DNA from: Chthonomonadia bacterium
GTDB taxonomy: Bacteria > Armatimonadota > HRBIN16
NCBI GenBank assembly: GCA_013314755.1
Contig: JABUFA010000001.1
Span: 23,594-87,593, forward strand
DNA: 64,000 bases
Reading direction: 5' to 3'
The notes under the pieces were generated by a model that was not told where the DNA came from, searched no databases, and saw only the letters and a list, made by a program, of their open reading frames with translations. Shown in pieces: positions 4,881-51,688 of the stretch (its first letter is position 1; every line of letters begins with the position of its first letter). The translations under genes were made by a program, and so were the position numbers.

Positions 4881-6383
4881 ATGAAGTGGAAAGACGCACG
4901 GATGGCGGGGGTGCTGTTACACCCCACCTCTCTGCCTGGCGCATTTGGCATCGGGGAACTGGGCGGGGAAGCATACCGCTTCGTGGACTGGCTGGTGCGG
5001 GCAGGACAGAAGGTCTGGCAGGTGCTGCCGCTGGGACCGACTGGCTTTGCAGACTCGCCCTATTCCGCCTTCTCCGCCTTTGCGGGCAATCCCCTGCTCA
5101 TCAGTCTTCAGCGACTGCAGGACGAAGGCTTGCTGACGTGGGACGATTTTGTTGATTACCCATTCCTTCCCGAAGACAGGGTAGATTACGGCGCGGTTAT
5201 CCCTGCGAAGATGGGCGTCCTGCGCCTCGCCTACGAGCGGTGGAAGTCGCAGGGCGACGAAGAGGCGAAACGAGGGCTGGAACACTTCCGAGAACAACAT
5301 ACCTTCTGGCTGGAAGACTTCGCGCTGTTCATGGCGCTGAAGGAGGCATACGGGGGCAGAGCGTGGACCGAATGGGATAGAGACCTTGCCCACCGCAATC
5401 CTGATGCCCTGAACCGCGCCCGAAGGGAGCTGGCGGACGAGGTGCAGTTTCATCGCTTTGTGCAGTACTGCTTTGCCAGGCAGTGGTCCGACCTCAAACG
5501 CTACGCCAACGCGCAGGGTGTGTTGATTATGGGCGATATGCCCATCTTCGTGGCGCACGATAGCACGGATGTGTGGGCGAAACCGGAGATGTTCTATCTG
5601 GATGAGGACGGCAATCCGACCTTCGTTGCCGGCGTCCCGCCAGACTACTTCAGCCCCACCGGTCAGCGATGGGGAAATCCCGTGTATCGGTGGGAGGTGA
5701 TGAAGGAGCAGGGTTACCGGTGGTGGATAGAGCGTTTTCGGTGGACTCTGCAGATGATGGACATCGTGCGCGTCGACCATTTTCGTGGCTTCTCTGCCTA
5801 CTGGCAGGTCCCCGCCTCCGAGCCAACCGCAGTGAAGGGAAGGTGGGTGAAGGTGCCGGGCAGGGAGCTGTTCCGCACTCTGCAAAGGGAACTTGGCGAA
5901 CTGCCCATCGTGGCAGAGGACCTGGGCACCATCACGCCCGACGTCACGCGCCTGCGCAAGGGGCTGGGCTTTCCGGGTATGCGGGTTCTGCAATTCGCCT
6001 TTGACGGCGACCCGAATAACCTCTACCTGCCCTACAACTACGAGCCGGACACTGTGGTGTACACCGGCACCCACGACAACGACACGCTGGTCGGCTGGTT
6101 CAACGGGTTGAGCGAGGAGGAGAAGCGGCGTGTCTACGACTACGTCGGGCGTGAGGACATCAGCGTTCACTGGGAGATGATTCGGCTGGCTTACGCATCG
6201 GTGGCGCGATTAGCCATCGTGCCCCTGCAGGATTGGCTGGGACTGGGCAGTGGGGCACGCATGAACCAGCCGGGGCGCGAAGCGGGCAACTGGCAGTGGC
6301 GCTGTCGAAGAGAACATCTGAATGAAGGACTGGCGCAAGCCATCGCGAAAATGTGTGCTGTTTATGGACGAGACAGGTATTGA
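4881..6383 (+). CDS. malQ: 4-alpha-glucanotransferase (amylomaltase, GH77)
   Basis: 500 aa. N-terminus AGVLLHPTSLPG...GIGELG and internal GH77 motifs (DMPIFVAHDSTDVW, VYTGTHDNDT) match MalQ. Confidence 0.9.
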   Translation: MKWKDARMAGVLLHPTSLPGAFGIGELGGEAYRFVDWLVRAGQKVWQVLPLGPTGFADSPYSAFSAFAGNPLLISLQRLQDEGLLTWDDFVDYPFLPEDRVDYGAVIPAKMGVLRLAYERWKSQGDEEAKRGLEHFREQHTFWLEDFALFMALKEAYGGRAWTEWDRDLAHRNPDALNRARRELADEVQFHRFVQYCFARQWSDLKRYANAQGVLIMGDMPIFVAHDSTDVWAKPEMFYLDEDGNPTFVAGVPPDYFSPTGQRWGNPVYRWEVMKEQGYRWWIERFRWTLQMMDIVRVDHFRGFSAYWQVPASEPTAVKGRWVKVPGRELFRTLQRELGELPIVAEDLGTITPDVTRLRKGLGFPGMRVLQFAFDGDPNNLYLPYNYEPDTVVYTGTHDNDTLVGWFNGLSEEEKRRVYDYVGREDISVHWEMIRLAYASVARLAIVPLQDWLGLGSGARMNQPGREAGNWQWRCRREHLNEGLAQAIAKMCAVYGRDRY

Positions 6384-9937: not shown

Positions 9938-10885
9938 TTGCCTCGTGCGGTGGTGACAGGAGGAGCGGGGTTTCTGGGGTCGCATCTGGTAGACCGACTG
10001 CTGGCGGAAGGCTATGAAGTCATCGTGCTGGATAACCTGATCACCGGCAGTGTGCAGAATATCGCGCATCTCGCCGGTAACGAACGCTTCCGCTTCATCA
10101 AACAGGATGTGACCGAATATCTCTATATCGACGGCGCGGTGGATATCGTCTTCCATTTCGCCTCGCCTGCCAGCCCGGTGGACTTCGCCACCAAGCCCAT
10201 CCAGATACTGAAGGTCAATGCACTGGGCACGCACAAAACGCTGGGGCTGGCGAAGGCAAAGGGCGCGCGCTACGTGCTGGCATCCACCTCGGAGGTATAC
10301 GGCGACCCCCTGATACACCCCCAAACAGAAGACTACACGGGCAATGTGAACCCGGTGGGCGTGCGAGGCGCATACGATGAAGGCAAACGCTTCGCCGAGG
10401 CGATGACCATGGCATACCACCGTCATCACGGACTGGACACGCGCATCGTGCGAATCTTCAATACCTTCGGCGAGCGCATGCGCCCGGATGACGGCAGGAT
10501 GATCCCCAACTTCATCGGGCAGGCACTGCGCGGCGAACCGATAACCGTGTACGGCGATGGACAGCAGACGCGCAGCTTCTGCTACGTCTCTGACCTGATA
10601 GAGGGCATCTGGAGGCTATCGCAACTGCCCGACTATCATGAACCGGTCAACATCGGCAACCCCGACGAGCGTACGGTGCTGGAGGTCGCTACCTTGATCC
10701 GGGAGATTGCCAACAGCAGGAGCGAGATAGTATTCCGCCCCCTCTTTTCGCCCGATGAGCCGCGCCGACGCAAGCCGGACATCACCCGGGCACGCCAACT
10801 GCTGGGCTGGGAGCCGCAGGTCAGCCTGGAAGAGGGACTGAGGCGCACCATTGAGTACTTTCGCCAGCGGATGGCACGTCCCTGA
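9938..10885 (+). CDS. uxs: UDP-glucuronate decarboxylase (UDP-xylose synthase; SDR family)
   Basis: Rossmann motif [10 protein letters not shown], a catalytic S..YxxxK region (ASTSEVYG...YDEGKR) and overall similarity to UXS1/ArnA-type decarboxylases. Confidence 0.85.
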
Positions 10886-10891
10886 GCTATT

Positions 10892-11269
10892 CTAACCCGC
10901 CTTCGCCTTCCAGATGGGCACGTCGCGTTTGAGCGACTCCAGCAGGAACTGGCATCCCGCGAAAGCCTCTGCCCGGTGCGGGGCGTGCACGCCGATAATC
11001 ACTGCAATCTCGCCCACGCCCACCCTGCCGAGCCGATGGCGAAAATACACCCTGCTCAGCCCAAACTGCTCACGTGCCTGCTGAATGTACTGTTCCAGCA
11101 TCTGCTCTGCCATCGGCTCGTACGCCTCATACTCCAGATACTGGATGGGCACGCCGTTTTCCAGCCGACGCACCACCCCCAGAAACTCCACCGATGCGCC
11201 CGAATGCTCACTCATCGCTTCACGATGCCATTCCTCTGGAGACAGCGGTTCACGGGTCAAATAGCGCAT
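10892..11269 (-). CDS. moaE: Molybdopterin synthase catalytic subunit
   Basis: 125 aa; the internal segment GxxxVFxGxxR...E...Y..YxxMA (VEFLGVVRRLENG...YLEYEAYEPMA) is typical of MoaE. Last gene of the Moco operon. Confidence 0.8.
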   Translation of the reverse strand: MRYLTREPLSPEEWHREAMSEHSGASVEFLGVVRRLENGVPIQYLEYEAYEPMAEQMLEQYIQQAREQFGLSRVYFRHRLGRVGVGEIAVIIGVHAPHRAEAFAGCQFLLESLKRDVPIWKAKAG

Positions 11270-11272
11270 GGC

Positions 11273-11524
11273 TCAGCCTCCACTCACAGGGGGTATCAGC
11301 GCAACTTCATCACCGTCATGCAGGACGGCGTCTGGCTCCACGTACTCACAGTTCACCGCCACGCGCGTGGACTTCATCCACTGTATCAGCTCAGGACAGG
11401 TTTCCTGCAGGTGGCAAATCAAGTCGCGCACGGTGGCGCCATCGGTCAGGCTGACGGACACGGTTTCCGCACCCAGTACCGTTTTCAGATGAGCAAAAGC
11501 CAGAACCGAAACGGTCATACGCAT
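11273..11524 (-). CDS. moaD: Molybdopterin synthase sulfur-carrier subunit
   Basis: About 83 aa ending in the diagnostic C-terminal Gly-Gly (…IPPVSGG). Its ATG overlaps the moeA stop (ATGA). Confidence 0.7.
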   Translation of the reverse strand: MRMTVSVLAFAHLKTVLGAETVSVSLTDGATVRDLICHLQETCPELIQWMKSTRVAVNCEYVEPDAVLHDGDEVALIPPVSGG

Positions 11525-12759
11525 CCCTCCATCGGGGCGATAGGCAGTGCTTTGACGAGCGTACCCTCGGCATAAGTGTTCTCGCCCGGCGGCAGGTAGA
11601 TAAAGGCGTTCGCCTGCGCCAGACTGCCCAGCAGAGAAGAACCCTGCGCAGTGGTCGGAGTGACACTCAGAATGCCGTCCGGCATCACACACAGCTGTGC
11701 GGTCTGGAATTCGGCGCGCGATTCCTTCTTGTGGACGGACGTCCCCAGGCGAGCGGTCACATAACGCGGCAGAGGTTGCGTCTCACCCTCCAGAGCGTTC
11801 AGATAGGGCAGGACAAACACCAGCAGTCCCACCACCACCGCCAGCGGGTTGCCCGGCAGACCGAATATCGTGCGACCATAGTGCTTTGCGAACAGGATGG
11901 GCTTACCCGGCTTCATGTTCACCCGCCAGAAGACGGTCTCCACACCCAGCTCCTTCAGGGCGGGCTTGACCAGGTCTCGCTCGCCGACGGACACACCACC
12001 TGTTAGAATAAGCACATCTGCCTCGCAAAGCGCCCGCTCCAGCCATCTGGTTATCAAAGACAGGTCATCTGCAACGGTGTCGGCAAAGATACACCCGACG
12101 CCTCGCGATTCGAGCCACAACCGCAGTATCAGACTGTTGGAGTCACGGATGGCATCGGGGCGAAGGGGCGCGTTGTAGGGAAGCAGTTCACTGCCCGTAG
12201 CCAGTAAAGCCACGCGCGGGCGCCGATACACCTGCAGGGGAGACAGCCCCAGCGCAGCAAGCAGTCCGATATGCTGTAACCCCAGCCGCGTGCCCGCCTC
12301 TAACAGAGGTGTGCCTGTGGCGATATCCTGCCCTTTAGGACGAACGTGCATGCCGGGCTTTATCGGCGCATCGATTCGCAGATAGTCCCCCTCGATCTGC
12401 GCCTGCTCGACGGGCAGGACCGTGTTTGCGCCTGCAGGCATCGGTGCGCCCGTGTTGATGACCACTGCCTCCATCGGCTGAAGCCCGGCGGAATAACCCC
12501 TTCCCGCCGCCGATTCGCCCACGATTCGCAGGTGTACCGGAGCGTCGGGCGTTGCGGAAACGGTATCCTCTGCACGCAGGGCGTAGCCGTCCATCGCCGA
12601 GTTGTCGAAAGGCGGGAGGTCATGCGGTGCCACCAGATTCTGGGCAAGTACGCGCCCCACGCACTCCGCCAGGTCTGCCGTTTCCACCCCCAGCGGATTC
12701 ACCCCCTCCAGCACCTTCGCCTGGGCTTCCTCCACGCTTATCATCGTTTTTGCCGTCAT
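11515..12759 (-). CDS. moeA: Molybdopterin molybdotransferase
   Basis: 414 aa. MoeA N-terminal region (LPPFDNSAMDGYALRAED) and a central MoCF-binding domain (GGVSVGERD). Confidence 0.9.
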   Translation of the reverse strand: MTAKTMISVEEAQAKVLEGVNPLGVETADLAECVGRVLAQNLVAPHDLPPFDNSAMDGYALRAEDTVSATPDAPVHLRIVGESAAGRGYSAGLQPMEAVVINTGAPMPAGANTVLPVEQAQIEGDYLRIDAPIKPGMHVRPKGQDIATGTPLLEAGTRLGLQHIGLLAALGLSPLQVYRRPRVALLATGSELLPYNAPLRPDAIRDSNSLILRLWLESRGVGCIFADTVADDLSLITRWLERALCEADVLILTGGVSVGERDLVKPALKELGVETVFWRVNMKPGKPILFAKHYGRTIFGLPGNPLAVVVGLLVFVLPYLNALEGETQPLPRYVTARLGTSVHKKESRAEFQTAQLCVMPDGILSVTPTTAQGSSLLGSLAQANAFIYLPPGENTYAEGTLVKALPIAPMEGCV

Positions 12760-12772
12760 CCGCTCTTCTCCC

Positions 12773-13528
12773 TCAGAGAAGCGTTAGCATGAGCTTACCA
12801 CATGCAATCGCCAGCACCACAGCCAGCACCCGGTTCAGGGCGCTCGGTACCAGGCGTCTCGCGCCGAAGTAGGAACCTACCAGCCCACCCACTATCGCCA
12901 CCGCCATCGGCAACCACAGCGACCCGACCACCAGTTTATCCGTGCTCACCCGCGCCAGCAGTCCCGCCAGCGAGTTCAACAGCACAAAAGAGGCTGCTAC
13001 CCCTGCGGTATCGCGCGGCGTCGCCCATTTCAGCAGAATAAGCAGAGGGCTGAGAAACACCCCGCCTCCAATGCCCACAATGCCCGAAATCAAGCCCACT
13101 CCTGCGCCCACGCCCAGCGCGGTCGGCAAAGCAGGCGATTTGACACCATCCGCACCTGCCGAAGCGGTCCCACCCTGGAACAACAGCAGTCGTAACGCTG
13201 CCATCGCCAGCCCAACCGTCAGCAACAGATGGAACAGCCACAGGGGAACCTTCACCAGGCCACCGATGAACGCCGCCGGAATGGAGGCAACCAGAAACGA
13301 ACCCGCCAGCCGCGCCGGAAAGTGCCCCGCCAGCGCGAACTGCACCAGCGCTAGCCCCGAAACCACGGTGTTCAGGATCAGCGCGGTCGTAGATGCCTCC
13401 TGCGGGGGAACAGAGGAAGCCATCAGCGTCAGTAATGCCAGATAGCCTGTGGCGCCGCCATGCCCTACCGAAGCGTAGAGCATCGCAACCACAAAAAAGC
13501 CTATCAGCAGGTAGTACGCCTCATGCAT
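12773..13528 (-). CDS. TauE/SafE (DUF81) family anion exporter-like permease
   Basis: Polytopic membrane protein with the characteristic VGHGGATGYLALL start region and an internal repeat. Probable start at the internal MHEAYYLL. Embedded in the Moco operon. Confidence 0.7.
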   Translation of the reverse strand: MHEAYYLLIGFFVVAMLYASVGHGGATGYLALLTLMASSVPPQEASTTALILNTVVSGLALVQFALAGHFPARLAGSFLVASIPAAFIGGLVKVPLWLFHLLLTVGLAMAALRLLLFQGGTASAGADGVKSPALPTALGVGAGVGLISGIVGIGGGVFLSPLLILLKWATPRDTAGVAASFVLLNSLAGLLARVSTDKLVVGSLWLPMAVAIVGGLVGSYFGARRLVPSALNRVLAVVLAIACGKLMLTLL

Positions 13529-40584: not shown

Positions 40585-41106
40585 TTAAGCGCGTCGCCGT
40601 CGCAGGAACAGCAAGCCAAGCCCTGTCGACAGCCCAACCAGCGTGACCGGCTCGGGCACAGGAATCAGCTGTCCCCGAATATCCTTCGTGCCGCTGGGGG
40701 TCTGGATCTGGATGTAGGTGTTGCCTGCCAGCAGGTCGGCTTCATAGGCAGACGGGAACAATCCACCGGTGATGAATCGCGAGAATACTGTGCCATTACC
40801 TGACCAGGATGCTCCACCGTCCATGTCATAAATCGCAGGTCCGTTCGTGCCTGGCGCGCCTACGTGAATCTTAGCACCAACTATCTCGCTCTGGGTAAGC
40901 CCCACTTCGTACACTGCGATATTGAACAGTTTGGACACGTCGTCGTAGCTCATGATAGCTTGCCCAAATGCGGTGGTGCTTGTGGGTGGCACGACCTGAC
41001 TGCCGGAGAGGTTTGCGGTGAGCACCCATACGGTGGCGCTGGATGGCAATGCCACCACCGCAAGCAACGTCATGAGCACTCCTAACCGCGTGCATAAGCG
41101 AAGCAT
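40585..41106 (-). CDS. CHRD-domain protein with PEP-CTERM sorting signal (tandem paralog)
   Basis: Same architecture as the downstream gene (AKIHVGAPGTNGPAIY; …VPEPVTLVGLSTGLGLLFLRRRRA). Start at the internal MLRLCT. Confidence 0.75.
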   Translation of the reverse strand: MLRLCTRLGVLMTLLAVVALPSSATVWVLTANLSGSQVVPPTSTTAFGQAIMSYDDVSKLFNIAVYEVGLTQSEIVGAKIHVGAPGTNGPAIYDMDGGASWSGNGTVFSRFITGGLFPSAYEADLLAGNTYIQIQTPSGTKDIRGQLIPVPEPVTLVGLSTGLGLLFLRRRRA

Positions 41107-41277
41107 ATTTGCTCCTCCTTTCGTATCATCATGGACCCGTGAACACCAACCCGGTGCGAGCTGAACTCCCACCTTAATTGTAGTATACACCCTGTACAAA
41201 ATGCTGTCAAGCATTTTTCGCAGTTGCCAGGAAAAAATTGTTGGGATTTACGCACCGGACTGAAATGGCGCAGTGCT

Positions 41278-42159
41278 CTATCCCTTCACCGCCCCCAGCT
41301 GGATACCGCGCACCAGGAACCGCTGGGAGACCACAAACAGTATCACCAGCGGAATGATGTTCATCACGCTTGCCGCCATAATCAGGTTGGTCTGGCGTCC
41401 GTAGTTGGTGTCGAAATACAGCATCCCGATGGGCAGGGTGCGCAGGTGGTCGCTCTTGATAAGAATAAGGGGCCAGAAGAACGAGCCATAGTTGCCCATG
41501 AAGGTGAAAATGGCAAGCGTAATCAGCCCGGCACGCGAGAGGGGCATGATGATGTCCCAGAATATCTGCCAGTGCGACGCGCCGTCTATCTTCGCCGCCT
41601 CGTCCAGCGAGGGCGGGATGGTGAGCATGAACTGACGCAGGAGGAACGTGCCGAACGCGCTGAACGCCGCGGGCACAATCAGACCGATGTACGAGTCCAG
41701 CAGATGCAGCCATACCATCAGCGTATAGTTGGGAATCATGGTCACCACGCCCGGTATCATCAGCGTGGCAAGGTAGAGGCGGAAGATGGTGTCGCGTCCT
41801 TTCCACCGAAGGCGGGCGAATGCATAAGCTGCCATCGCGCTGGTGAGGCACTGCAGAAAGGTCACCCAGGCAGCGATGAACACGCTGTTGAAGTAGTACC
41901 GCGCGAAGGGAATCTGCTCGAACACCCGCGCGTAGTTTTCGGGATGCCAAACGGTGGGTAGAGGATTAATCTGCTCGACCTCTTCCAGCGGCTTGAAGCT
42001 GGCAAGCACCATCCACACAAAGGGCGCGAGCGAGGTCAGCGCCATCAGCGTCAGCGCGAGGTGGCTGAGCACCCCCTTCACCAGCGAACGTCGCCCCCGC
42101 CCGCCGACCGGTGCCGTCTGTGCTCTGCCAAAGACTGTTCCCTGTGCCTCCTCTACCAT
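41278..42159 (-). CDS. Sugar ABC transporter permease (MalG-like, CUT1)
   Basis: Six TM helices and EAA loop DEAAKIDGASHWQIFWDIIMPL. Confidence 0.85.
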   Translation of the reverse strand: MVEEAQGTVFGRAQTAPVGGRGRRSLVKGVLSHLALTLMALTSLAPFVWMVLASFKPLEEVEQINPLPTVWHPENYARVFEQIPFARYYFNSVFIAAWVTFLQCLTSAMAAYAFARLRWKGRDTIFRLYLATLMIPGVVTMIPNYTLMVWLHLLDSYIGLIVPAAFSAFGTFLLRQFMLTIPPSLDEAAKIDGASHWQIFWDIIMPLSRAGLITLAIFTFMGNYGSFFWPLILIKSDHLRTLPIGMLYFDTNYGRQTNLIMAASVMNIIPLVILFVVSQRFLVRGIQLGAVKG

Positions 42160-42166
42160 CGCAGGC

Positions 42167-43138
42167 TTAATAGCTGACCTCCTTCGCGCCGAACTTCCAG
42201 TTAATCAACGTAACCACGAAGATAATCGCGAACAGAATCCACGAGATAGCGGAAGCGTAGCCAATCTGGAACTCCTCGAAGGCTTTGGTGTAGATGTAGT
42301 AGGTCAGGGTAGTGGTGGTGCCAGCAGGTCCGCCGCCGGTCATGACCCTTGCCTGTTCAAAACCGCCCTGCAATCCGCCGATGAAGCTCATCACCACGAT
42401 GAAGAAGGTGGTGGGCGCCAGCTGGGGCCAGGTGACGTTGCGGAAGACCGCCCATTTGCCCGCGCCGTCCAGCTGTGCGGCTTCAATCAGCTCCTGGGGC
42501 ACGTTGGTCAGCGCCGCCAGATACAGAAGCATATTGTTGCCGCCGATGGCAATCCAGATGCCCATGATGATGAGCGCGTCGCGGGCGCCCAGCCCGAACT
42601 GTTTCATGCTCACGCGCACCTGTTCCACCTCCAGCCCCAGCAGATTGGCGGTGGAAAGCAGCCATTCGGGCGCCTTCACCTTCAGCCCCAGCGCTTCGCT
42701 CACCGCGTTAATCATGGCGTTAATCGGACCGAAGTCGGGGTTATACAGCGCCTTCCACAGAATCATCAGCGCCACTCCGCTGGTGATGCTGGGCAGATAG
42801 AACAGCGTGCGGTACACCACAATGCCGCGCAAACGCTGACTGAGCAGAATCGCCAGCGCCAGTGAGCCGGCAATCGCCACCGGCATACCCAGCATCAGGT
42901 AGAGGGTGTTGATGAAATAAAGCCAGAACTGGGTGTCGTGCATCAGTTCGACGTAGTTGCCGAAGCCTATCCACTGGAAGGGCACAGTGCGCTGGAGGTT
43001 CCAGTTCGAGAAGCTGACCACCAGCGAGAACAGCACGGGTCCCGCCGTGAACACCCCGAAGCCGACGAAGTTCGGCAGGAGGAACAGCCACGCGATGGCG
43101 CGTTCATCTCCTGCTTTGCGGGCGGGTAGAACGCTCAT
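42167..43138 (-). CDS. Sugar ABC transporter permease (MalF-like, CUT1)
   Basis: EAA loop [23 protein letters not shown]. Precedes the MalG-like gene. Confidence 0.85.
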
Positions 43139-43617
43139 AGTTTATAACCGAACCGGCGCAGGAGCTGCTTGCGTTCCTGAATGTCCTGCTCGGTCTCCAC
43201 GCCTTTGGTCTTGATGCCATCAATAACGCCCAGCACGCCTCGTCCCTGTTCGGTTTCAGCGACGATGACCTGCAGAGGGTTGGCGGTGGCGCAGAAGATG
43301 CGGCACACCTCAGGCACTGCCTTCACCGCGTTAAGCACGTTAATCGGGAAGCCGTCCTTCAGGAAGATGATAAACACATGCCCCGCCGACAAAAGCAGCG
43401 CGTTCTTCTTGGCGAGCTCTATCAGCTCCGCATCGTTGCCGCTGTAGCGCACCAACGCAGGTCCCGACGACTCGCAGAAGGCAAGCCCGAACTTCAAAGA
43501 AGGCGAGGAACCTGCCAGCACCTCATGCAGGTCTTCCACCGTCTTGATAAAGTGCGACTGCCCCAGAATCAGGTTGTAGGCGTTGGGGTTTTCAATCTGT
43601 ACGACATGGAGCTCCAT
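43135..43617 (-). CDS. Conserved hypothetical protein (possibly DUF355/adenosine-specific-kinase-like), embedded in sugar ABC operon
   Basis: 160-aa soluble ORF whose stop overlaps the MalF-like permease start. The family assignment is a weak recollection, not a motif match. Confidence 0.4.
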
Positions 43618-43691
43618 CTCTCAACCCTCCCGCGGTATGGATTCAGCCATCCGATTCGCGCAGGGGATGCAGACTCCTGCTGAGTATCAGC

Positions 43692-45053
43692 TCACCGCTG
43701 AGTCTGCGCCTGCACCAGCGCGAGGTAGCGTTTGCGCAGTTCGGGGTCGCGCTGAATTGTCTTCTGGATCTCCTCGTTAATCTGGCGCGCGGCGGTGCGC
43801 AGGGCGTCCGCTGCCGATTTCTGATTGCTCTTCACTAGGTCTAACTGCTTGTTCAGGATGCGCATGGCGGTCTGCCCGTTGACGAAGGGGCTGATTTCAT
43901 CGGGCACGGCGTAGTTCATCGCATCGCGCCACACGGCGTTAAAATCCTCCTCCGGGTAGGCGGGGTCATGCAGGTATTTTTCGGTATACGAGTACTTCTT
44001 CACCGGCGCGAGGGCGTCCGCCTGATGGTTAATCAGCTCGTTATACTCCTTGCTGGCGAGGTACAGCACGAACTTCAGCGCGTGTTGTCGGCGTGGGCTG
44101 TTGCGGTTGATCAGCGAGGCACGCCCGTAGCCGCGAAAGATGCGGTATGGTCCATGTGGCGACTCCACCGCGCCCAGCTTTAGCCCCCGATAGCTGCGCA
44201 GGGTACACAGCCACCATCGCCCGCCCAGCGCCATCGCGCCCTTCTTCGCGCCAAACCAGGTAATCGTGCCCGAACCCCAGCCTCCCTGTGTCGCCATCGC
44301 CGCCTCCTCCACCGGGCTGGGCATCACGCGGTACTTATAGATAAGGTCCTGCATGAACTGCACCGCCGCAATCGCCTGCGGACTGTCGATGATACAGCGT
44401 GTGCCGTCGGGTGTGTACAGCCGTCCACCCCATTGCAGCACGAAATGATACCAGTTCCACCAGTCCATCAGGAAGCCGAATTGCACCGGTCTGCCGCTCC
44501 GGTCGCGGATAGTGAGCTTCTGGGCGACCTCCAGAAACTGTTCCCATGTCCAGGGTCCTTTGGGATAGGGCACGCCGTATCGGTCGAAGATGTCCTTGTG
44601 GAACCAGATGGCGTTAACCGCCGCGTTGGTGGGAAAGCCGTAGACGCGCCCTTCGTGGATGATGTTGGGGTGCACCGCCCGCCACACGTCGTTTTCCACG
44701 TCGATGCCCGCCTTTTTGAGTTCGTCGGTGATGTCCCACGCGATGCCCGAGCGCACGTAGGCGGAGAGCTGAAAACCGTCGTAACAGTCGAAGATGTCGG
44801 GTCCGACGCCTGCCAGCGACTGCACAATGACCTTCTCCATGCCGGTGTTGCTGGGGTCCAGGCGCAGGTCATATTCGGGGTGCAGTTTGTTGAACAAGGC
44901 AATCTGCTCACGGCGGGCAGGGTTATCATCGCTGACCCACACCAGGGGGATTTTGCCCTGGGCGGTGTCGCGCGGCTGGATACGCCACGCAACCAGCGAG
45001 AGCAGAACCAGTACGACAAACGCCCCAGCGAAGAAGTATTTCATGGGAACCAC
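43692..45053 (-). CDS. ABC transporter extracellular solute-binding protein (family 1, sugar)
   Basis: Signal/anchor helix followed by a ~430-aa SBP-type fold. First gene of the SBP-x-MalF-MalG block. Confidence 0.85.
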   Translation of the reverse strand: MVPMKYFFAGAFVVLVLLSLVAWRIQPRDTAQGKIPLVWVSDDNPARREQIALFNKLHPEYDLRLDPSNTGMEKVIVQSLAGVGPDIFDCYDGFQLSAYVRSGIAWDITDELKKAGIDVENDVWRAVHPNIIHEGRVYGFPTNAAVNAIWFHKDIFDRYGVPYPKGPWTWEQFLEVAQKLTIRDRSGRPVQFGFLMDWWNWYHFVLQWGGRLYTPDGTRCIIDSPQAIAAVQFMQDLIYKYRVMPSPVEEAAMATQGGWGSGTITWFGAKKGAMALGGRWWLCTLRSYRGLKLGAVESPHGPYRIFRGYGRASLINRNSPRRQHALKFVLYLASKEYNELINHQADALAPVKKYSYTEKYLHDPAYPEEDFNAVWRDAMNYAVPDEISPFVNGQTAMRILNKQLDLVKSNQKSAADALRTAARQINEEIQKTIQRDPELRKRYLALVQAQTQR

Positions 45054-45093
45054 CCTTACTTCCTATCTTTCTATTTCTCATATCTTTCTCCTC

Positions 45094-46752
45094 TTACCCC
45101 AACGTGCGCTGGAATAACCACTCCACAAAGTGAACGAGCGCAGGAGTCTTTTTGTGCCGAAGCCATAGGAAGGCAAGCGGAAAGCCAATCACTGCTCGCT
45201 TTTCTCGATGAGCAATGAGGCGTGTGCTGCCGAGGGTGGCCAGGTATGTCCACTGCTTGCCTAGAGAAGAGATATCTATGGGCAAAATGGGTAGATCGTT
45301 GTGTGTCACGGGGATTTCACCGCTTGGGGTCTGTACGGTATACCCCCTGTCGTTCCTTGCATGAGGCGTGTTGACCACCTCTACCACGCTGGGAAGGATA
45401 GCTGCCACTTCTTCCAATCGCTTCCTGTCTTCAAGAGGTAAGGTTTCCATTGGCGAAAACGCTACGTAGATTCCTTTATAGTCGCGCAGATTTTCCTGCA
45501 GATTATCTTCACAGACGACTCGCACAGGATATCCGTGCTGTGTTAACATATGCCACGCTCCAAATTGAGCATCATGTAACCACTCGGTTTGTTCTCGGTA
45601 GCAATAATTCGTCCACTTGGAAACGAACAGCAAGACCGTGTTTGCGGAGTCCGTACGCCGAGAGGTCGTAACGTTTTGGGCAATTTTAGCGGCCTCCGTA
45701 ACTAGCCGATGCTCAGAGGGCAGCTTATCGCTGTAGGAATAGTTGGCGATTTTGAGGTGTGCTCCTTCAGCAAGAGCAGCGCCGAGCACACGCAAAATCT
45801 GAGCATCGGTATAGCCAAACTTTTCCTGCAAAATGGGACCATCTATCTCGAAGCTAACTGGTAATCCCGTGATACCCTGCAGAGCAGCCACCGAAGCGGC
45901 GGCATGCCAAGCGGGGTCCTTTGCGTGCCAGAAGAAGTCGTAGCTATGTACGATGTGATTTGCCCCTCTCGACAGGCCGAAGTAGTCCGAGTTAGACATT
46001 GTGGCACTGGCACTGCGGTACCCTTCTCCCAGAGGAACGCTGATAAAAGCACGTGGATTACCTTCTCGGATTGCCTGTACAAAGCGATATACAGCACCAC
46101 GCCAGCTATGTTCACGGAATGCAATAAAAGCACGATGAGATGGGCTCAGGTCAGGTTCTCCGTTGGTGTGGTTGGGAAGAACAGGAGGCTGTTGAGGCAG
46201 ATTTGCGTTGCCTGCAATACGCTTCAGCCAGGCAGGGCGGGGGATGGAAATAGATTGACGCCACTTATTTACACTGGCAGGGTCGTAGCTCCACCAGTCT
46301 GACCATTTGAGTTCTCCATGTACCCCGATAAATGGGCTAAACTGTACAGGCTCATTGTGAAATTGTCGAGCGAGCATCGTACAGAGAGGAAGGAAGCACT
46401 CCCAGAAGCGGTCGTCGTTAATGGAGGGAATAGGCATTACCACTTTGCCCGTGTGGTCGCACCAGAGGTTGCACTTCAACCATGCTGGCATAGCACTAGC
46501 ATAATAGGTATTGATACGCACTCGAAGATACATTCCCAGCTTCTTAGTGATGGCGAGCCGTTGTGAGACAAAGGAGAAATCGTACTGGTGCGGTCTCGGC
46601 TCTAGTTTGCTCCACGGAGCAGTAATTTCCATAACATTAAAGCCAGCACGCTTCAAATCCTTGCTCCACTGTTGGAAGAGGGACAGTTGTTGACAGGGTA
46701 GAGTCCAGTCCCATATGTCGAAAGCCAGTTCACGTTCGTGGTTTTGACCCAT
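45094..46752 (-). CDS. Putative glycoside hydrolase, GH42-like TIM-barrel plus trimerisation-like domain
   Basis: N-terminal FNVMEITAPWSKLEPRPHQYDF resembles the GH42/GH35 barrel start. The central Rossmann-like segment resembles the GH42 middle domain. Region has visibly lower GC. Confidence 0.45.
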   Translation of the reverse strand: MGQNHERELAFDIWDWTLPCQQLSLFQQWSKDLKRAGFNVMEITAPWSKLEPRPHQYDFSFVSQRLAITKKLGMYLRVRINTYYASAMPAWLKCNLWCDHTGKVVMPIPSINDDRFWECFLPLCTMLARQFHNEPVQFSPFIGVHGELKWSDWWSYDPASVNKWRQSISIPRPAWLKRIAGNANLPQQPPVLPNHTNGEPDLSPSHRAFIAFREHSWRGAVYRFVQAIREGNPRAFISVPLGEGYRSASATMSNSDYFGLSRGANHIVHSYDFFWHAKDPAWHAAASVAALQGITGLPVSFEIDGPILQEKFGYTDAQILRVLGAALAEGAHLKIANYSYSDKLPSEHRLVTEAAKIAQNVTTSRRTDSANTVLLFVSKWTNYCYREQTEWLHDAQFGAWHMLTQHGYPVRVVCEDNLQENLRDYKGIYVAFSPMETLPLEDRKRLEEVAAILPSVVEVVNTPHARNDRGYTVQTPSGEIPVTHNDLPILPIDISSLGKQWTYLATLGSTRLIAHREKRAVIGFPLAFLWLRHKKTPALVHFVEWLFQRTLG

Positions 46753-46847
46753 TTTCTTCCTCCGATAGGAAGAGCCTCCACGAATCGGGATGTAAAGGGA
46801 GTCCCCGTACCGGCAACAAGATACGAGGACTCCTCTTCCGCCTGCCG

Positions 46848-47648
46848 TTACATATCAGGACTCAGGAGGTGGGTAGAGACGTAATCCTGAGCCTCTGCTT
46901 CAGAGTTCGCCATGTACCAGTTATCCCAGGGGTTGACCAATAACGGATAGTTATCCGTTAGGTTCCACATCAGGCGAGGGCGTACGGTCTGGCTGGACCT
47001 CAATGCTTTTGCGTGTCCATCTACGAATGTCCAGTTGATGGTCCCGCCGTGTGTTCGCAGAGGATACCAGGTGTATCCGATGTACCACAGCCCAGCATCG
47101 AAGAGCTCGAAGGGCAGCTCTACGATGATTATCTTAGACGCAGGCTCTTGGATACCGGCAAGGGCGAAGGCGTTTTGTCCACTACCGTATGTCCAGCCGA
47201 ACACGTACGCGTTCATCGCGTAGCCTTTGGGGCGGGTGACTGTGCCCCAACCTCCGGTACGTCCAACAGCCTCGTCTGGACGGGAAGGACAGACAAAGAT
47301 CTGGTGGTTTTTCACATAGGGCATCAACAGGTCGTACCAAATGATGAGGTCGACGCCCCAGTCACTTCGTCGTCCAACCCAGCGGTCATAGTTGGGCATA
47401 GGCAACATTTCGTCGTAGTCCTGCGTGTACATCACCATGCCAAGCCCAAGCTGCTTCATGTTCGAGAGACAAGCGGACTTTCTGGCTTGTTCGCGTGCAC
47501 GTGCGAACACCGGGAACAGAATCGCTGCCAGTATCGCGATTATCGCGATAACCACCAGCAATTCGATCAGGGTAAAAGCTGTGGCCGTGCGTCTCACTGG
47601 TTTTTTCCCTCCTTCGTTCGTCCGAGTTTTTGAGCGTTTCTGCCACAC
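46848..47648 (-). CDS. Prepilin-type N-terminal cleavage/methylation domain protein, H-X9-DG (DUF1559) family
   Basis: [35 protein letters not shown]-terminus and C-terminal FVDGHAKAL. Exact start uncertain. Confidence 0.7.
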
Positions 47649-47829
47649 CTATTTGTGGTCGGGATGTGGCATTGTTGCCTGCGAAGGCAACGGTGGTAGC
47701 CACGGTGGCTTTTCTGGCTCGTACAGGATGGTCTTGCGCCACACTATTACCGCGATAGCGAGCAACACGATAATCAGGGCAAGCCCTATTCCGACGAACC
47801 TCTTTTGCTGCATGTGTTTATCACCTCCC

Positions 47830-48840
47830 TCAGAGACGGGGTGCTGGACCTGTGCTTTTCCTAATTACGAGGCTTGTTTGGAACCGACAGATCTGGGTTG
47901 GTTCAACAGGAGACCGACGCAATGCCAAAACCATCTCAGCCGCCTTTTGTCCCAGTCCAAAAGCATCTATTCGTACAGTAGTAAGCGGTGGTTCCATCAT
48001 ACTTGCCATTGGCACATCATCATGCCCTACAATCGAGACCTGTTCTGGCACGCGTAGTCCTAGGCTAACAGCGCTAAACATCGCACCAATTGCAAGGTCG
48101 TCTTTTCGGGCAAAGATTGCCGTAGGGGGGTTAGGCTGGGTGAACAAATGCCGAGCCGCCGCAGCACCCTCTGCCACAGTGAAGCCGGCAGTTACTATGT
48201 TACGTTCCTCGAGAGAGACTCCGTACTTCTGCAACGCTTCCCGGAACCACGTTGGGAAAAGATCGTCTTCCCGGATGCCAATAAAACCGATGCGTCGATG
48301 CCCCAAAGAGACCAGCAAATCCGCTACTTCCTCCACTCCGTGTTTCATATCCGTTGTAATACATCCTACATAAGGTAAATCGGCTTCGGTGGGTGCTCCG
48401 TAAATCACAAAGGGCGTAGCAGGGTTAGCGAGCTGTTTGATATGCTCACGCACAGGACTCCAGCCTTTTATCAGGATCACCCCGTCTACTGCTGCCGAGC
48501 GCACCCATCTAAGCAAGGGGGAATCTGCGCTATCTAGACGAAACACGTTATCCAACAGTAAGCCATAACCATGCATATGCAGGGTAGACTGAACGCCTCG
48601 TGCAAAGTCCGTGAGAAACAGGTCTGAAAGGATTTCCTGGTCGGTGTGGTGGAGGGCAATGATGTGGCTTTGTCCCGTGACGAGCTGCTGAGCGTGGGGG
48701 TTTGGAATATACCCCAGTTCTCTCATGCGCCGAAGCACCATCTCGCGTGTTTTGGCGCTAACTCGCCCTCTACCACTCAACACGTGCGACACGGTGGTCG
48801 GAGAAACTCCTATTAGTTTGGCGAACTCTTTGATGCGCAT
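47830..48840 (-). CDS. LacI family transcriptional regulator
   Basis: N-terminal HTH MRIKEFAKLIGVSPTTVSHVLSG and a C-terminal PBP-fold effector domain. Confidence 0.85.
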   Translation of the reverse strand: MRIKEFAKLIGVSPTTVSHVLSGRGRVSAKTREMVLRRMRELGYIPNPHAQQLVTGQSHIIALHHTDQEILSDLFLTDFARGVQSTLHMHGYGLLLDNVFRLDSADSPLLRWVRSAAVDGVILIKGWSPVREHIKQLANPATPFVIYGAPTEADLPYVGCITTDMKHGVEEVADLLVSLGHRRIGFIGIREDDLFPTWFREALQKYGVSLEERNIVTAGFTVAEGAAAARHLFTQPNPPTAIFARKDDLAIGAMFSAVSLGLRVPEQVSIVGHDDVPMASMMEPPLTTVRIDAFGLGQKAAEMVLALRRSPVEPTQICRFQTSLVIRKSTGPAPRL

Positions 48841-49269
48841 ATTGTATTGGAAAATACAACGACTTATAGGAAAATCGTTTTGGCAAATTCAATTGTATCC
48901 TAAACTCTTCTCTATGTCAAGGGATTAGTGTGATGTTTTCCCAAAAAATCAGTAAAAGGCTTGGTGGAAATCGACCGGAATGCTCGGTTAGTAATCTCAG
49001 GTATACTTTGTGGGCTAATTTCGATGTATGCCGAGAACGCTGGTAATGACTAAGCTCGACCGTTTTCGGTGTGGACTGGTCGGAGAATGCATCCGCCGAT
49101 TTGAAAAACAGGGTTTGCAGTGGATGCAGCGTTTCGTCTCCTTTGGCTGGTTGACGCCTCTTTCCAAGCGTGGTTATCGGCTATGTGTGATGCTGGGGTG
49201 TCTGGCGGCGTTTTCGGCGCGTGCTTCGCGTGCACCTGCGAGGAGCCGTCGTTCGAAGGTAGAGGCGGC

Positions 49270-49680
49270 GTTAGACGGGATAGTGGCGGTTCATGCGAAG
49301 ATGGATGCTCAGGGGCATGAGGATAGGTTGCTGGTGGTATTGGGTGTTAGGTTTGAGTGGCCGGCGTGTGTGAGGTGTGGGGAGAAGTGTTCGTTTGGTG
49401 TCATGTTGGTGGAGTGGGAGTGTTCGTTGGCAGACTGGGGATCGGTGTCGTGTTCTGGGCATGCAGGTATGGAATGCGTTTGGTGAGGGATTTGGCACGG
49501 TTTGTGTGCGTGAAGGGGCGAGTTGGGTAGAAATGGCTGAAGGATTAGTGGCTTGGCTGGTGGAGGCTAAAGAGGGGATTGCGGTGTTCTTGGGTAGATT
49601 TCTGGGGGTTTGAATGGTTATGATAGATGATGAAGCAAGGCTTTGGGGGGATCGTGGGGGCGGTGTTCAGCTAAAAGTTC
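49270..49680. other. Strongly GT-skewed, C-depleted non-coding tract (~400 bp)
   Basis: The plus strand is almost devoid of C over ~400 nt in an otherwise ~60% GC genome. Overlapping ORFs encode improbable W/G/V-rich or P/H/T-rich peptides. Confidence 0.6.
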
Positions 49681-49689
49681 AAAAGTCGG

Positions 49690-50095
49690 GACATCTCCCG
49701 CGAGGAGAGGGAAAAACAGATCGGCGGAAGCCTTGCCCTCCAAGGGATGCTGTAGGGGCAACCCTCTGTGGTTGCCCTCTCCAATGCCGAACAGCCCCAC
49801 CTGAACTCACCGAAGGCGGAAAGGGACTGTCCCCCTGCTTGCGAGGGGACAACACGGGGGCTTACCATACCGCAAGAAAGCCCCTCCTAACCTCCCCGCA
49901 GGCAGGGAGGAACCCCTCTCCCGCCCTCTCCCCGACGCGGGGAGAGGAGTGTCGAAAGAAGCCCTCACCCTGACCCTCTCCCACGAGGAGAGGGCAACAC
50001 GGGGTAAAACCCCTCTCCCAGCCTCTCCCCGACGCGGGGAGAGGTGATGCGCCCCTGAACGGAAAGATTTTTCCGAGAAATCTCTCCCGAACACC
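49690..50095. repeat. Dense array of REP-like hairpin repeats (at least 5 distinct palindromic units)
   Basis: Contains GGGCAACCctctgtGGTTGCCC, GTCCCCctgcttgcgaGGGGAC, CCTCCCcgcaggcaGGGAGG, CCCTCTCCCacgagGAGAGGG and two CCTCTCCCCgacgcGGGGAGAGG units. A 95-bp composite (49950-50045) is repeated inverted at 56372-56465. Confidence 0.85.
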
Positions 50096-50211: not shown

Positions 50212-51111
50212 GTGTGGCATTGCCTCTCTGTCAGCGCAGATTCCATATCTCTTGCAGTCTCTTCCACGAAGGACGGGGCAAGAGCAGCCCCTGTCACTCC
50301 CTTCGTTGACCATAACCCCTCTCTTGTCTGGTCGGTTGTTTCGGCTGAAATCCTTGCTGAGGGCAACGTGCAGATAGCGTATGAGTATGGGTATGGGTTT
50401 GACGGCGGTCGTCGCTGGCGGAAGGACTACCTGAATGGGGTGTGGACTCGGTATCCGTGCGGTGTGGCGTGCGGTGCTGGGGAGCTGGTGGAGCAGCAGA
50501 AGCCGCTGGAGGGAGGCAGCTGGACAACGAGTGCGCTGTATTTGCAGGGCATTTCGCTGGTTCGGCGAAACAGTGAGTGGCATCACTTTGACCCGTTCGG
50601 CACAGCTGGAGTGATAACCAACGGGAGTGGTCAGGTGGTGAGCAACAACCTGTATGACCTGTTTGGTGTCATCAGATATGAGCAGGGCAGCGCGCAGACG
50701 CCGTGGAGGTGGATATGGTTTCGTACCAGTGAGGAAGACCTGCTGACAGTAAGTAGAGTTCTCACTCAGCCGGAACGTGACCTTGCTCTTTCGAGGCCGG
50801 CGCTCGTACCGCTAGGAGCGGGTGGAATAATAGGAGGGATGCTTTGCCTGCTGGCGTGTGCGTGGGTTGGGACTGGTGTTCATGAGTACTGGAACGACTG
50901 TCAACGCGAGTGCAGCAGCATGGATAATCCTGTTCGGTGCATGCCTAATTGCTTGATAACAAAAACATGCCAGAGTGCAATTGACACAGTGGCATGTATT
51001 GGATGCGGTGCATGTATCTGTTTGGTTCCTGTAGTCCGTCCTCTGTGTGTAAAGGTGGGCAGAGCAGCTATACGCATATGGGTGAAGCTTAGGGATATTC
51101 TACGAGAATGA
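50212..51111 (+). CDS. N-terminally truncated Rhs/YD-repeat C-terminal fragment with degenerate core end and Cys-rich hydrophobic tip
   Basis: Contains EWHHFDPFGTAGVITNGSGQVVSNNLYDLFGV, which matches the Rhs core signature YYHxDHLGSxxLLTDxxGxxVWxxxYDPFGE at most positions. A degraded RYYDP…DPIGLAGG-like segment follows (RVLTQPERDLALSRPALVPLGAGGI). The tip is C-rich with a TM stretch. There is no N-terminal Rhs body upstream. Lower GC than surroundings. Confidence 0.5.
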   Translation: MWHCLSVSADSISLAVSSTKDGARAAPVTPFVDHNPSLVWSVVSAEILAEGNVQIAYEYGYGFDGGRRWRKDYLNGVWTRYPCGVACGAGELVEQQKPLEGGSWTTSALYLQGISLVRRNSEWHHFDPFGTAGVITNGSGQVVSNNLYDLFGVIRYEQGSAQTPWRWIWFRTSEEDLLTVSRVLTQPERDLALSRPALVPLGAGGIIGGMLCLLACAWVGTGVHEYWNDCQRECSSMDNPVRCMPNCLITKTCQSAIDTVACIGCGACICLVPVVRPLCVKVGRAAIRIWVKLRDILRE

Positions 51112-51118
51112 GGGGGGC

Positions 51119-51688
51119 TTGATGATGCTTCGCCTAGGATGGAGGGATACCTTTGCAGCAGTGTGCTTTGTGCTAATATACGTGTTGTCCCCGCCGTCCA
51201 AGCAGCTGTATTCTCGGCTCGGAACGTGGCCTGTATCGGAGTATTTCTCTATCGCCTTCGCTTTGGCGGTCGGGTTCACCTTTCGTTACTTCCACACGCG
51301 CTGGTCGCCAGAATGGCAAAGCAAAGTGGGAATGGGGCTATTAGTGCTCGCAGGCTTGGGAGCAGCAGGTGGCGACTTTGTCATCTCGGCTGCTATAGCT
51401 TGGTCGGCTTCGCTGGTCTTACTTTTTCGAGCAGTCTTTCGCGACGACAGCGAGGCGCGGTGGGCGGCGCCTATCATGTTTTTCGGTTTTTGGGCAGTGA
51501 TACTGTGTGCGATACTTGTGCACCTCGGTGGAATGAATGCGCTGGGCAGTGCGTTCGCAGTCGCATGGGCGCTGTTTATCATTGGTCTCTACATGCAAGC
51601 AGGTAATGGCGGGGACAAATTGCAAGAACCGCAGGGGCATCCTGTGCTGTTAGCGTTTCATGGGCTTCTGTTTATTGCCGCATTGTGA
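51119..51688 (+). CDS. Polytopic membrane protein (hypothetical; candidate immunity protein of the adjacent Rhs-like tip)
   Basis: 189 aa with 5-6 predicted TM helices. Starts 8 nt after the Rhs-fragment stop. No motif recognised. Confidence 0.45.
   Translation: MMMLRLGWRDTFAAVCFVLIYVLSPPSKQLYSRLGTWPVSEYFSIAFALAVGFTFRYFHTRWSPEWQSKVGMGLLVLAGLGAAGGDFVISAAIAWSASLVLLFRAVFRDDSEARWAAPIMFFGFWAVILCAILVHLGGMNALGSAFAVAWALFIIGLYMQAGNGGDKLQEPQGHPVLLAFHGLLFIAAL

Follow-up and report, generated by a model that had tools for sequence, protein, structure and literature searches.

Insertion sequences (IS) of the IS701 family duplicate only a short stretch of target DNA, ∼4–5 bp, upon insertion. The subject of this work is a G+T-rich, C-depleted tract at positions 49270–49680 of a 64,000-nucleotide stretch of DNA from a Chthonomonadia bacterium (referred to throughout as the window; contig JABUFA010000001.1, positions 23,594 to 87,593 of the forward strand), which is situated between a lacI gene (47830–48840, minus strand) and an array of hairpins that resemble repetitive extragenic palindromic (REP) sequences (∼49691–50050). 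The tract is very probably a non-functional fossil, namely the decaying right-hand (3′) arm of an IS701-like element, now joined to a destroyed ndk gene. Taken by itself it is an ordinary dead IS fragment, and the interest lies in a property of the clade of elements to which it belongs. This clade departs from IS701 as known to us in two ways: whole hairpins are duplicated at the site of insertion, and the base composition of each strand follows a mirrored gradient along the element.

In other respects the clade is similar to the IS701 family. The transposase is homologous (DDE_5, PF13546; transpos_IS701_3) and, as in that family, the element is ∼1.65 kb in length with a single open reading frame (ORF) and 17-bp terminal inverted repeats, and is both multicopy and mobile. 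Unlike curated IS701 members, however, the transposases score below the NCBIfam cutoff, with the most skewed members being invisible to the Pfam DDE_5 model, and unlike IS701 the duplication comprises a whole palindrome of 22–35 bp. The extreme mirrored gradient in strand composition likewise has no counterpart in IS701 as known to us, and the copy in the window differs further from an intact IS701 element in that its left arm and catalytic core are gone. A described system with a comparable choice of target is IS1272, of the IS1182 family, which is reported to insert at hairpin-forming inverted repeats as opposed to a primary-sequence motif, and to replace the inverted repeat so that no target duplication is left (PMC5678879). 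The present clade resembles IS1272 in inserting at a hairpin-forming sequence, but differs in that the hairpin is directly duplicated on both sides of the element and in having a transposase of another family.

Results

The plus strand of the tract comprises 180 G, 120 T, 71 A and 40 C residues (n = 411), the C content of 9.7% comparing with a mean of 29.1% across the 64-kb window. GC skew amounts to +0.651 in the 400-nt core at 49261–49660 (plus strand, 9.5–9.7% C), which lies wholly within the transposase fragments and element end described below, whereas the window as a whole has a mean skew of 0.017 with a standard deviation (SD) of 0.104 and a runner-up value of 0.336. The G+T content peaks at 76% at 49324–49623, against a window mean of 50.5% (SD 4.5%). 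The strong strand asymmetry that was assigned to this place in an earlier note, prepared from the sequence alone, is borne out by these values, although its description of the strand as nearly C-free was too strong in view of the 40 C residues that are left, in which GC and TC contexts predominate. The extent of ∼400 bp given there has the right position, but the skewed block is wider, with its onset at ∼49150 and its end at ∼49690. Since the tract was recovered at 97–100% identity in contigs of separate sequencing runs (SRR33387333, SRR32929653 and SRR12999147), it is not an assembly artefact; a public record, FMSI01029362.1, also carries the tract but may be the same contig as that from SRR33387333, both being 2243 bp in length. 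The tract is real sequence, and its composition is far beyond chance.

The identity of the tract emerges from protein-level comparisons. An ORF of 152 codons (ORF152; 49028–49486, plus strand) begins with a remnant of ndk, which encodes nucleoside diphosphate kinase, and continues into the tract. When ORF152 was used as the query in a word-indexed protein search, a strain variant, P0001, was the sole hit, and an exhaustive phmmer search of 1.84 billion representative proteins, using the part of ORF152 that follows the ndk remnant, found one further protein, P0002 (E 1.2e-4), with positions 1–77 of the query aligned to residues 143–218 of this 477-aa protein. P0002 is encoded in a complete Fimbriimonadales genome, AP024673.1 (locus L009), and has ∼300 homologues, many of which match Pfam DDE_5 and one of which is named 'Transposase IS701-like DDE domain'. 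The best NCBIfam model for these relatives is transpos_IS701_3, with E-values of 1e-20 to 2e-36 that fall below the curated 170-bit cutoff, and Pfam DDE_5 is matched above its cutoff by P0018 and P0110, which are among the less skewed members.

A family profile built from 83 full-length transposase members and run by hmmsearch matched the window twice, in collinear order and in two different frames. The first match, at 49106–49345 (profile positions 134–211, independent E-value (i-E) 7e-15, bias 0.2 bits), delimits transposase fragment A, which lies on the plus strand in the same frame as the ndk remnant. The second match, at 49320–49547 (profile positions 389–462, i-E 7e-5), identifies fragment B, the C-terminal part of the transposase (49320–49613, plus strand), the frame of which is open to a TGA codon at 49611–49613; a separate ORF at 49377–49613 lies in that frame. 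The stop codon at 49484 was considered as the homologue of the transposase stop and was rejected, as the profile alignment puts the C-terminus in the other frame, to 49611–49613. The catalytic core (profile positions ∼212–388, ∼530 bp) has been deleted between the two fragments. Both fragments were also matched by tblastn with individual transposases: residues 146–224 of P0004 matched fragment A (E 3e-12, 41% identity), residues 400–479 of the weakly skewed Rubrobacter protein P0110 matched 49332–49577 (E 4.5e-7), and P0063 also matched the fragment B region (E 5e-4). Moreover, C is depleted mainly at third codon positions in the fragment A frame at 49114–49270 (0.11, compared with 0.29 and 0.31 at positions 1 and 2), because the frame of ORF152 is the old transposase frame.

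Downstream of the fragment B stop codon is the non-coding right end of the element (49614–49690, plus strand), which contains a TGTTCA box at 49664–49669 and a degenerate terminal inverted repeat, AAAAGTTCAAAAGTCGGG, at 49673–49690. Intact right ends at loci L009, L010 and L021 have the form ...TGTTCACG...GAAA(G)TGAxAAACxTCAG with a hairpin directly after, and the right end in the window aligns with them; its terminal repeat matches that of the P0004 element at 10 of 17 positions, as judged by eye. The hexamer GTGTTC occurs five times in the tract (49387, 49420, 49450, 49584 and 49663) against an expectation of 0.17, the copy at 49663 being the conserved subterminal box of the element family. 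The copies at 49387 and 49420 are spaced by 33 nt and are in frame (SVRL/SVRW), and may represent a local duplication; the strain variant L007 has a 6-bp deletion between them. A further motif, GCTGGTGG, is present twice, where 0.04 copies would be expected.

With no intact DDE core and with fragments A and B in different frames, the copy in the window is a dead remnant as opposed to a functional IS701 member. The first ∼133 transposase codons, the catalytic core and the left end have been lost, the latter at the ndk junction, and only the degenerate right repeat is left. The statement in the earlier note that no credible ORF explains the asymmetry holds for the sequence as it stands, but the asymmetry was inherited from an element that was once coding. 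Of the three explanations offered there, a decayed low-complexity gene comes closest: a decayed gene is indeed present, in the form of the transposase together with the non-coding right end, but it is not a gene of low complexity. Tandem Repeats Finder reported nothing in the tract and autocorrelation gave no significant lag. Canonical G-quadruplex motifs number 0 in the tract against 1.6–4.4 in shuffles. Pfam searches of all six frames of the tract returned no match below E 0.2, blastn searches of phage and plasmid collections gave no match to the tract, and tblastn of plasmids with P0110 gave none either.

Several observations weigh against this identification or limit its precision. The profile match of fragment B needed a 12-bit correction for bias in composition, after which its i-E stands at 7e-5. 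At the protein level fragment A shares just ∼41% identity with P0002 and P0004, and a more closely related intact copy of the parent element did not emerge, which indicates that the parent subfamily is unsampled. Fragment A is also more positively skewed than the corresponding region of P0002, and the parent would therefore have had an earlier zero crossing, as is seen in P0004 and P0020. Finally, with the left end lost and the position of the right end known only to within ∼3 nt, a target duplication is not demonstrable in the window.

Comparison with the nearest genome in the species-level collection, the metagenome-assembled genome (MAG) CAZOGB010000006.1, reveals what the remnant replaced. 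Locus L003 of this MAG is syntenic with the window at 40625–49113, with ∼92% DNA identity, except for 45342–46636, which is missing from L003; this segment is most of a gene at 45094–46752 with weak Glyco_hydro_42/35 matches, and constitutes a second indel between the two lineages. At the position of the tract, L003 has an intact 137-aa ndk gene (Pfam NDK, E 4e-58) followed by tRNA-Gly(CCC), and no tract. The window retains a 5′ remnant of ndk (49028–49117, plus strand) of ∼30 codons, with collinear identities to the L003 gene of 23, 22 and 25 of 30 across three blocks of 49028–49117. Identity falls to 16 of 30 on the +6 diagonal at 49118–49147, to which decayed homology possibly extends, and to noise farther on. 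The remnant has lost 16 bp from its ribosome-binding region, and in place of the conserved KPDG motif it has KLDR. Thus ndk is a pseudogene here, and the sequence from ∼49110–49147 onward is specific to the lineage.

A sequence of events can be proposed for the locus. An element of the family would first have resided next to a REP hairpin, as is suggested by the adjoining array and by the habit of the family. A deletion or rearrangement then joined ndk at codon ∼30–40 to the transposase at codon ∼134, as the sister MAG comparison and the profile match demonstrate, and removed the rest of ndk together with the left arm of the element. A second deletion took out the catalytic core, and the immobile leftover evolves at about the rate of non-coding DNA, as judged from small numbers of strain differences. 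Divergence between the window and L007 is 0.79% in lacI, 2.1% in the lacI–ndk spacer, 5.8% in the ndk remnant, and 2.2% plus the 6-bp deletion in the tract. Between the window and a second variant, L002 (99.55% identical), all 10 differences fall within 49447–49745 and none in the 1.9 kb to the left, a clustering that suggests relaxed constraint or a small recombination patch. By these comparisons the tract is under no detectable constraint.

Next, the strand composition of intact relatives was considered. In the elements of hot-spring Fimbriimonadales the top strand begins C+A-rich on the left and has become G+T-rich by the right end. Along the P0002 element (L009, 5922–7552, 17-bp inverted repeats) GC skew goes from −0.68 to +0.79 and AT skew from +0.58 to −0.55, and along the P0004 element (L010; 1650 bp, with repeats CTGAAGTTTATCACTTT and AAAGTGATAAACTTCAG, and a protein 60% identical to P0002) GC skew goes from −0.57 to +0.74, while the flanks of the elements have GC skews of about −0.1 to 0. 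The terminal repeats of the intact relatives are perfect over 17 bp. Each strand of the intact elements is, in other words, more G+T-rich towards its own 3′ end. Right arms of the intact relatives have GC skews of +0.6 to +0.79, corresponding by arithmetic from the skews to a composition of approximately 50–55% G, 27–34% T, 8–10% A and 6% C, of which the tract, with 44% G, 29% T, 17% A and 10% C, is a somewhat relaxed version. The G+T richness of the tract was inherited, and not made in place, being the normal right-arm composition of the clade.

The gradient is most pronounced at third codon positions, where the G+T fraction rises from 0.06–0.14 in the first sextile to 0.88 in the last. In the first quarter of the coding sequences of P0002, P0003 and P0004, third positions are occupied by C at 0.58–0.71, A at 0.18–0.28, G at 0.06–0.14 and T at 0.02–0.05, whereas in the last quarter the values are C 0.06–0.08, A 0.04–0.06, G 0.62–0.66 and T 0.22–0.28. 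The one is a near-exact complement of the other, and total G+C content at third positions (GC3) stays at ∼0.70. The difference in third-position G+T between the last and first quarters is 0.70–0.82 in the elements, as against 0.013 ± 0.057 in a comparison set of 33 ordinary long ORFs from the window. The skew is greater at third positions than at positions 1 and 2, and extends into the untranslated ends; because the bias is strongest at synonymous sites and spans the non-coding ends, it is mutational and not selected. Long inverted repeats between the arms were not found, only the terminal 17 bp being position-symmetric, and a foldback origin of the mirror was rejected on this ground.

In its extreme form the gradient is limited to the clade of P0002–P0008, with P0018 and P0020 being intermediate as judged by an amino-acid proxy, and P0110 having a weak mirror at the DNA level. 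The Chloroflexota relative P0063 counts against a uniform pattern, in that its gradient at the DNA level has the opposite sign, and it may be that the sign differs between hosts or subfamilies. For this gene (L023, 1001–2404), G and C fractions at third positions are 0.47 and 0.21 in the first quarter, and 0.26 and 0.38 in the last. The P0004 transposase is found in identical form in at least five genomic contexts, with copies in both orientations on one 3-Mb contig, which excludes the direction of chromosomal replication as the cause of the skew. As judged from these identical copies the P0004 element is active, although this bears on the mobility of a relative and not on that of the copy in the window. 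The skewed transposases encoded at L009 (6001–7434), L010 (1501–2958) and L021 (1001–2455) have an N-terminal quarter rich in P, T, H, Q, N and K, and a C-terminal quarter rich in G, V, W, C, F and L. The Pfam DDE_5 model missed P0002, P0003 and P0004, whereas the less skewed P0018 and P0110 were detected.

The same relatives provide evidence on the choice of target. Seven insertions, of the P0002, P0004, P0005 and P0020 elements, are flanked on both sides by identical and complete copies of a REP-like palindrome of 22–35 bp in direct orientation. These direct duplications are located at 1385–1419 and 3070–3104 in L010; at ∼1394–1419 and 3069/3070–3095 in L011, L012 and L017; at 295–320 and 1974–1999 in L024; at 914–935 and 2528–2549 in L022; and at 5900–5921 and 7553–7574 in L009. 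Since palindrome copies flank all seven insertions, the family inserts at the base of REP hairpins, duplicating the whole hairpin; this implies that insertion at the hairpin base is structure-specific and that the target duplication is variable and of unusual length. This habit accounts for the adjacency of the tract to the REP-like array, upstream of which it had correctly been placed in the earlier note: the array (49691–50050, no strand assigned), which is made up of repeat families D1–D3 and inverted repeats, directly adjoins the right end of the element at ∼49690.

Other explanations for the tract were weighed alongside the IS remnant. That which survives best, although it is unlikely, holds that a minus-strand transcript acts as a Rho-loading (rut-like) tract, or as some other G-poor regulatory RNA, and blocks antisense read-through into lacI. 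Rho loads preferentially on C-rich, G-poor, unstructured RNA, and on composition alone the minus strand, with 44% C, 10% G, a C/G ratio of 4.5 and an RNA minimum free energy (MFE) of only −25 kcal/mol over 410 nt, resembles such a substrate, for which a segment of at least ∼80 nt is needed. However, the minus-strand fold is no different from that of shuffled sequences (z +0.87), so that the weak structure is a by-product of composition, and promoter prediction gave nothing on the minus strand upstream of the tract, apart from the lacI promoter downstream. The tract is, in addition, a recent lineage-specific remnant without detectable constraint. The composition that the earlier note ascribed to a G-poor, unstructured minus-strand RNA is accordingly correct, but a selected function is unsupported, and any effect on Rho would be incidental as opposed to the reason why the tract exists.

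Less probable again is that ORF152 encodes a real new chimeric protein, with an Ndk N-terminus and a transposase-derived tail, that has a function of its own. The fusion between ndk and the transposase is in frame, and the ORF is open over 152 codons of G+T-rich sequence, with a probability estimated from composition of ∼0.02 for the last 72 codons. It has been called as a 146-aa gene in public assemblies and is retained in three strain variants, one of which has an in-frame 6-bp deletion. Nevertheless, the ndk ribosome-binding region is deleted and the second half of ORF152 is an out-of-frame reading of transposase fragment B. The differences between the window and L007 comprise ∼9 nonsynonymous changes to 1 synonymous change in addition to the in-frame deletion, no Pfam family was matched, and homologues are confined to strain variants. 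ORF152, which consists of the ndk N-terminus, fragment A and out-of-frame fragment B, is best read from this as a chimeric and probably spurious artefact.

The earlier note had also raised the idea of a CsrA/RsmA sponge, a GU-rich regulatory RNA whose numerous GGA motifs would titrate the protein as CsrB and RsmZ do, a possibility that is most improbable. The plus strand is certainly G-rich and contains 13 GGA motifs, and the conserved ndk promoter region upstream could feasibly drive its transcription. Yet GGA occurs at its compositional expectation (13 observed, 13.4 expected), as does AGGA (2 and 2.2), and GGG falls short (27 and 33), such that the runs remarked upon do not exceed what composition provides. 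Folding of the plus strand is no better than that of dinucleotide shuffles (MFE z −0.66). Neither of two checks that the note had named lends support: Rfam gave no match in 49150–49690 at E up to 10 and, with respect to conservation in related genomes, the tract is missing from the closest of these, the sister MAG at L003. The tract also diverges faster than the neighbouring lacI gene, and is positively identified as transposase-derived. No CsrA signature was found in a six-frame translation of the 64-kb window, which constitutes a weak test. The resemblance to CsrB/RsmZ sponges is restricted to G-richness and the presence of GGA, with no motif enrichment, structure, conservation or Rfam match.

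Lastly, it is scarcely credible that the tract is a resident sequence, either the rest of ndk or a neighbour, in which one strand underwent hypermutation in situ, for example through the action of a DNA cytosine deaminase toxin; for although C depletion with gain of G and T resembles clusters of C>T plus C>G changes, and an RHS-type toxin fragment lies 0.5 kb downstream of the tract, past ∼49147 no diagonal retains collinear similarity to the orthologous ndk, comparisons in purine/pyrimidine, keto/amino and strong/weak alphabets gave no match to the orthologous ndk region, strain differences do not have an ongoing C-specific spectrum, and transposase homology accounts for the sequence. Substitution models of C>T, C>G/T, C>T+A>G and A/C>G/T, compared over the whole window, L003–L006 and the flanks of the tract itself, with shuffled controls for the immediate flanks, likewise gave nothing above unrelated loci or shuffled flanks, and a degenerate 45-mer in which each G or T was allowed to be a former C retrieved the tract alone from the metagenome collection and nothing from the viral collection. 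An untemplated polymerase product (AbiK, DRT1) was rejected as a candidate, published products being random or A-rich and no reverse transcriptase being encoded nearby.

Other features of the surroundings are described for completeness. An ORF at 50212–51111, ∼0.2 kb beyond the REP-like array, encodes an RHS/YD-repeat-like C-terminal sequence without an N-terminal body, and is followed by a gene for a multi-pass membrane protein at 51119–51688; together they may represent an orphan toxin tip and the cognate immunity gene. ORF 50212–51111 has no exact copy on record. DUF1559 and N-methyl proteins are also encoded in the window and, taken with the transposase homologues, put the organism within or close to Fimbriimonadales (Armatimonadota). 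At L009, a gyrA-like gene downstream of the P0002 element (10537–13434) carries an intein and LAGLIDADG domains, and is unrelated to the element.

Discussion

The tract is accounted for by the right arm of an IS701-like element, and the question that follows concerns the origin of the gradient in the clade. The gradient is symmetric with respect to the element, diminishes from either end towards the interior and is most marked at silent sites, and an end-linked mutational process is therefore indicated. A tentative proposal, which on balance is rather doubtful, is that the gradient is an undescribed mutational footprint of a transposition intermediate that has single-stranded 3′ tails or long repair tracts. 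The pattern itself is a matter of observation, whereas that it is undescribed, and that it has this cause, we only infer; full-text literature searches found no description of mirrored skew inside insertion sequences, although such absence is not proof.

According to this proposal, 3′-ended strands would be single-stranded in the intermediate, either through 5′→3′ resection of the excised linear element or during long-patch gap repair after hairpin-targeted insertion. On the exposed strands C (and A) would be depleted through deamination or abasic-site bypass, with the changes becoming fixed upon fill-in synthesis. Hot-spring temperature would speed such damage, a host deaminase being the alternative agent. 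Extra C>T and A>G changes, set against the AT-to-GC pressure of the genome, could at equilibrium give G > T >> C and A without GC3 being lowered. Transcription of the transposase gene alone cannot give the mirror, because it would bias one strand uniformly, but if transcription added a uniform G+T bias to the non-template strand, the zero crossing could be set to the left of centre. The opposite sign would be expected if replication forks, or displacement synthesis, entered at the ends.

Polarised substitutions offer a small sample with which to compare these expectations, comprising 43 events among P0005, P0007 and P0008 with P0003 as the outgroup. The sequence clusters of these three proteins contain 272–462 members, and JGI 3300066320, 3300066321 and 3300071268 carry hundreds of copies. 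In the right arm C was lost at 5 of 44 positions and G at 1 of 222, whereas in the left arm G changed at 3 of 65 and C at 6 of 223, a mirror trend that is not significant. C>G and C>A account for all C changes in the right arm, C>T being absent; this is unlike simple deamination and counts against the mechanism in that form. Abasic-site bypass, a biased repair polymerase and a host deaminase are candidate causes.

Graded or switching strand biases are known from other systems. In vertebrate mitochondrial DNA the H strand is G+T-rich, with a skew that is proportional to the time spent single-stranded. The clade is similar in that its G+T enrichment is graded, strand-specific and greatest at synonymous sites, but it differs in having a far steeper gradient, mirrored around the centre of a transposon of 1.65 kb, and in that an excess of C>T is absent from the small sample of substitutions. 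Kataegis at resected double-strand breaks takes the form of somatic clusters, described in eukaryotes, and the skews of linear replicons that are replicated from both ends are replication-origin effects. As in both of these, the biased strand in the clade switches across a centre point, and the loss of C with gain of T and G resembles C>T plus C>G signatures. Unlike either, the composition is heritable, near equilibrium, and that of an active bacterial insertion sequence.

At the level of the locus, the history set out above is one of ndk loss via an IS-associated deletion, which clarifies both the odd tract and the 'hypothetical protein' ORF152. For the family, duplication of whole hairpins at the target points to structure-specific targeting of REP hairpins. 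The gradient reshapes the amino-acid content of the transposase to the extent that the protein is pushed below Pfam detection, and an active transposase gene evidently tolerates a within-gene compositional gradient that is among the most extreme known to us. If the gradient records segments that were single-stranded or resynthesised, it would be a natural read-out of mechanism for a poorly studied IS family, and might exemplify damage- or defence-driven mutagenesis acting on a mobile element of thermophilic bacteria.

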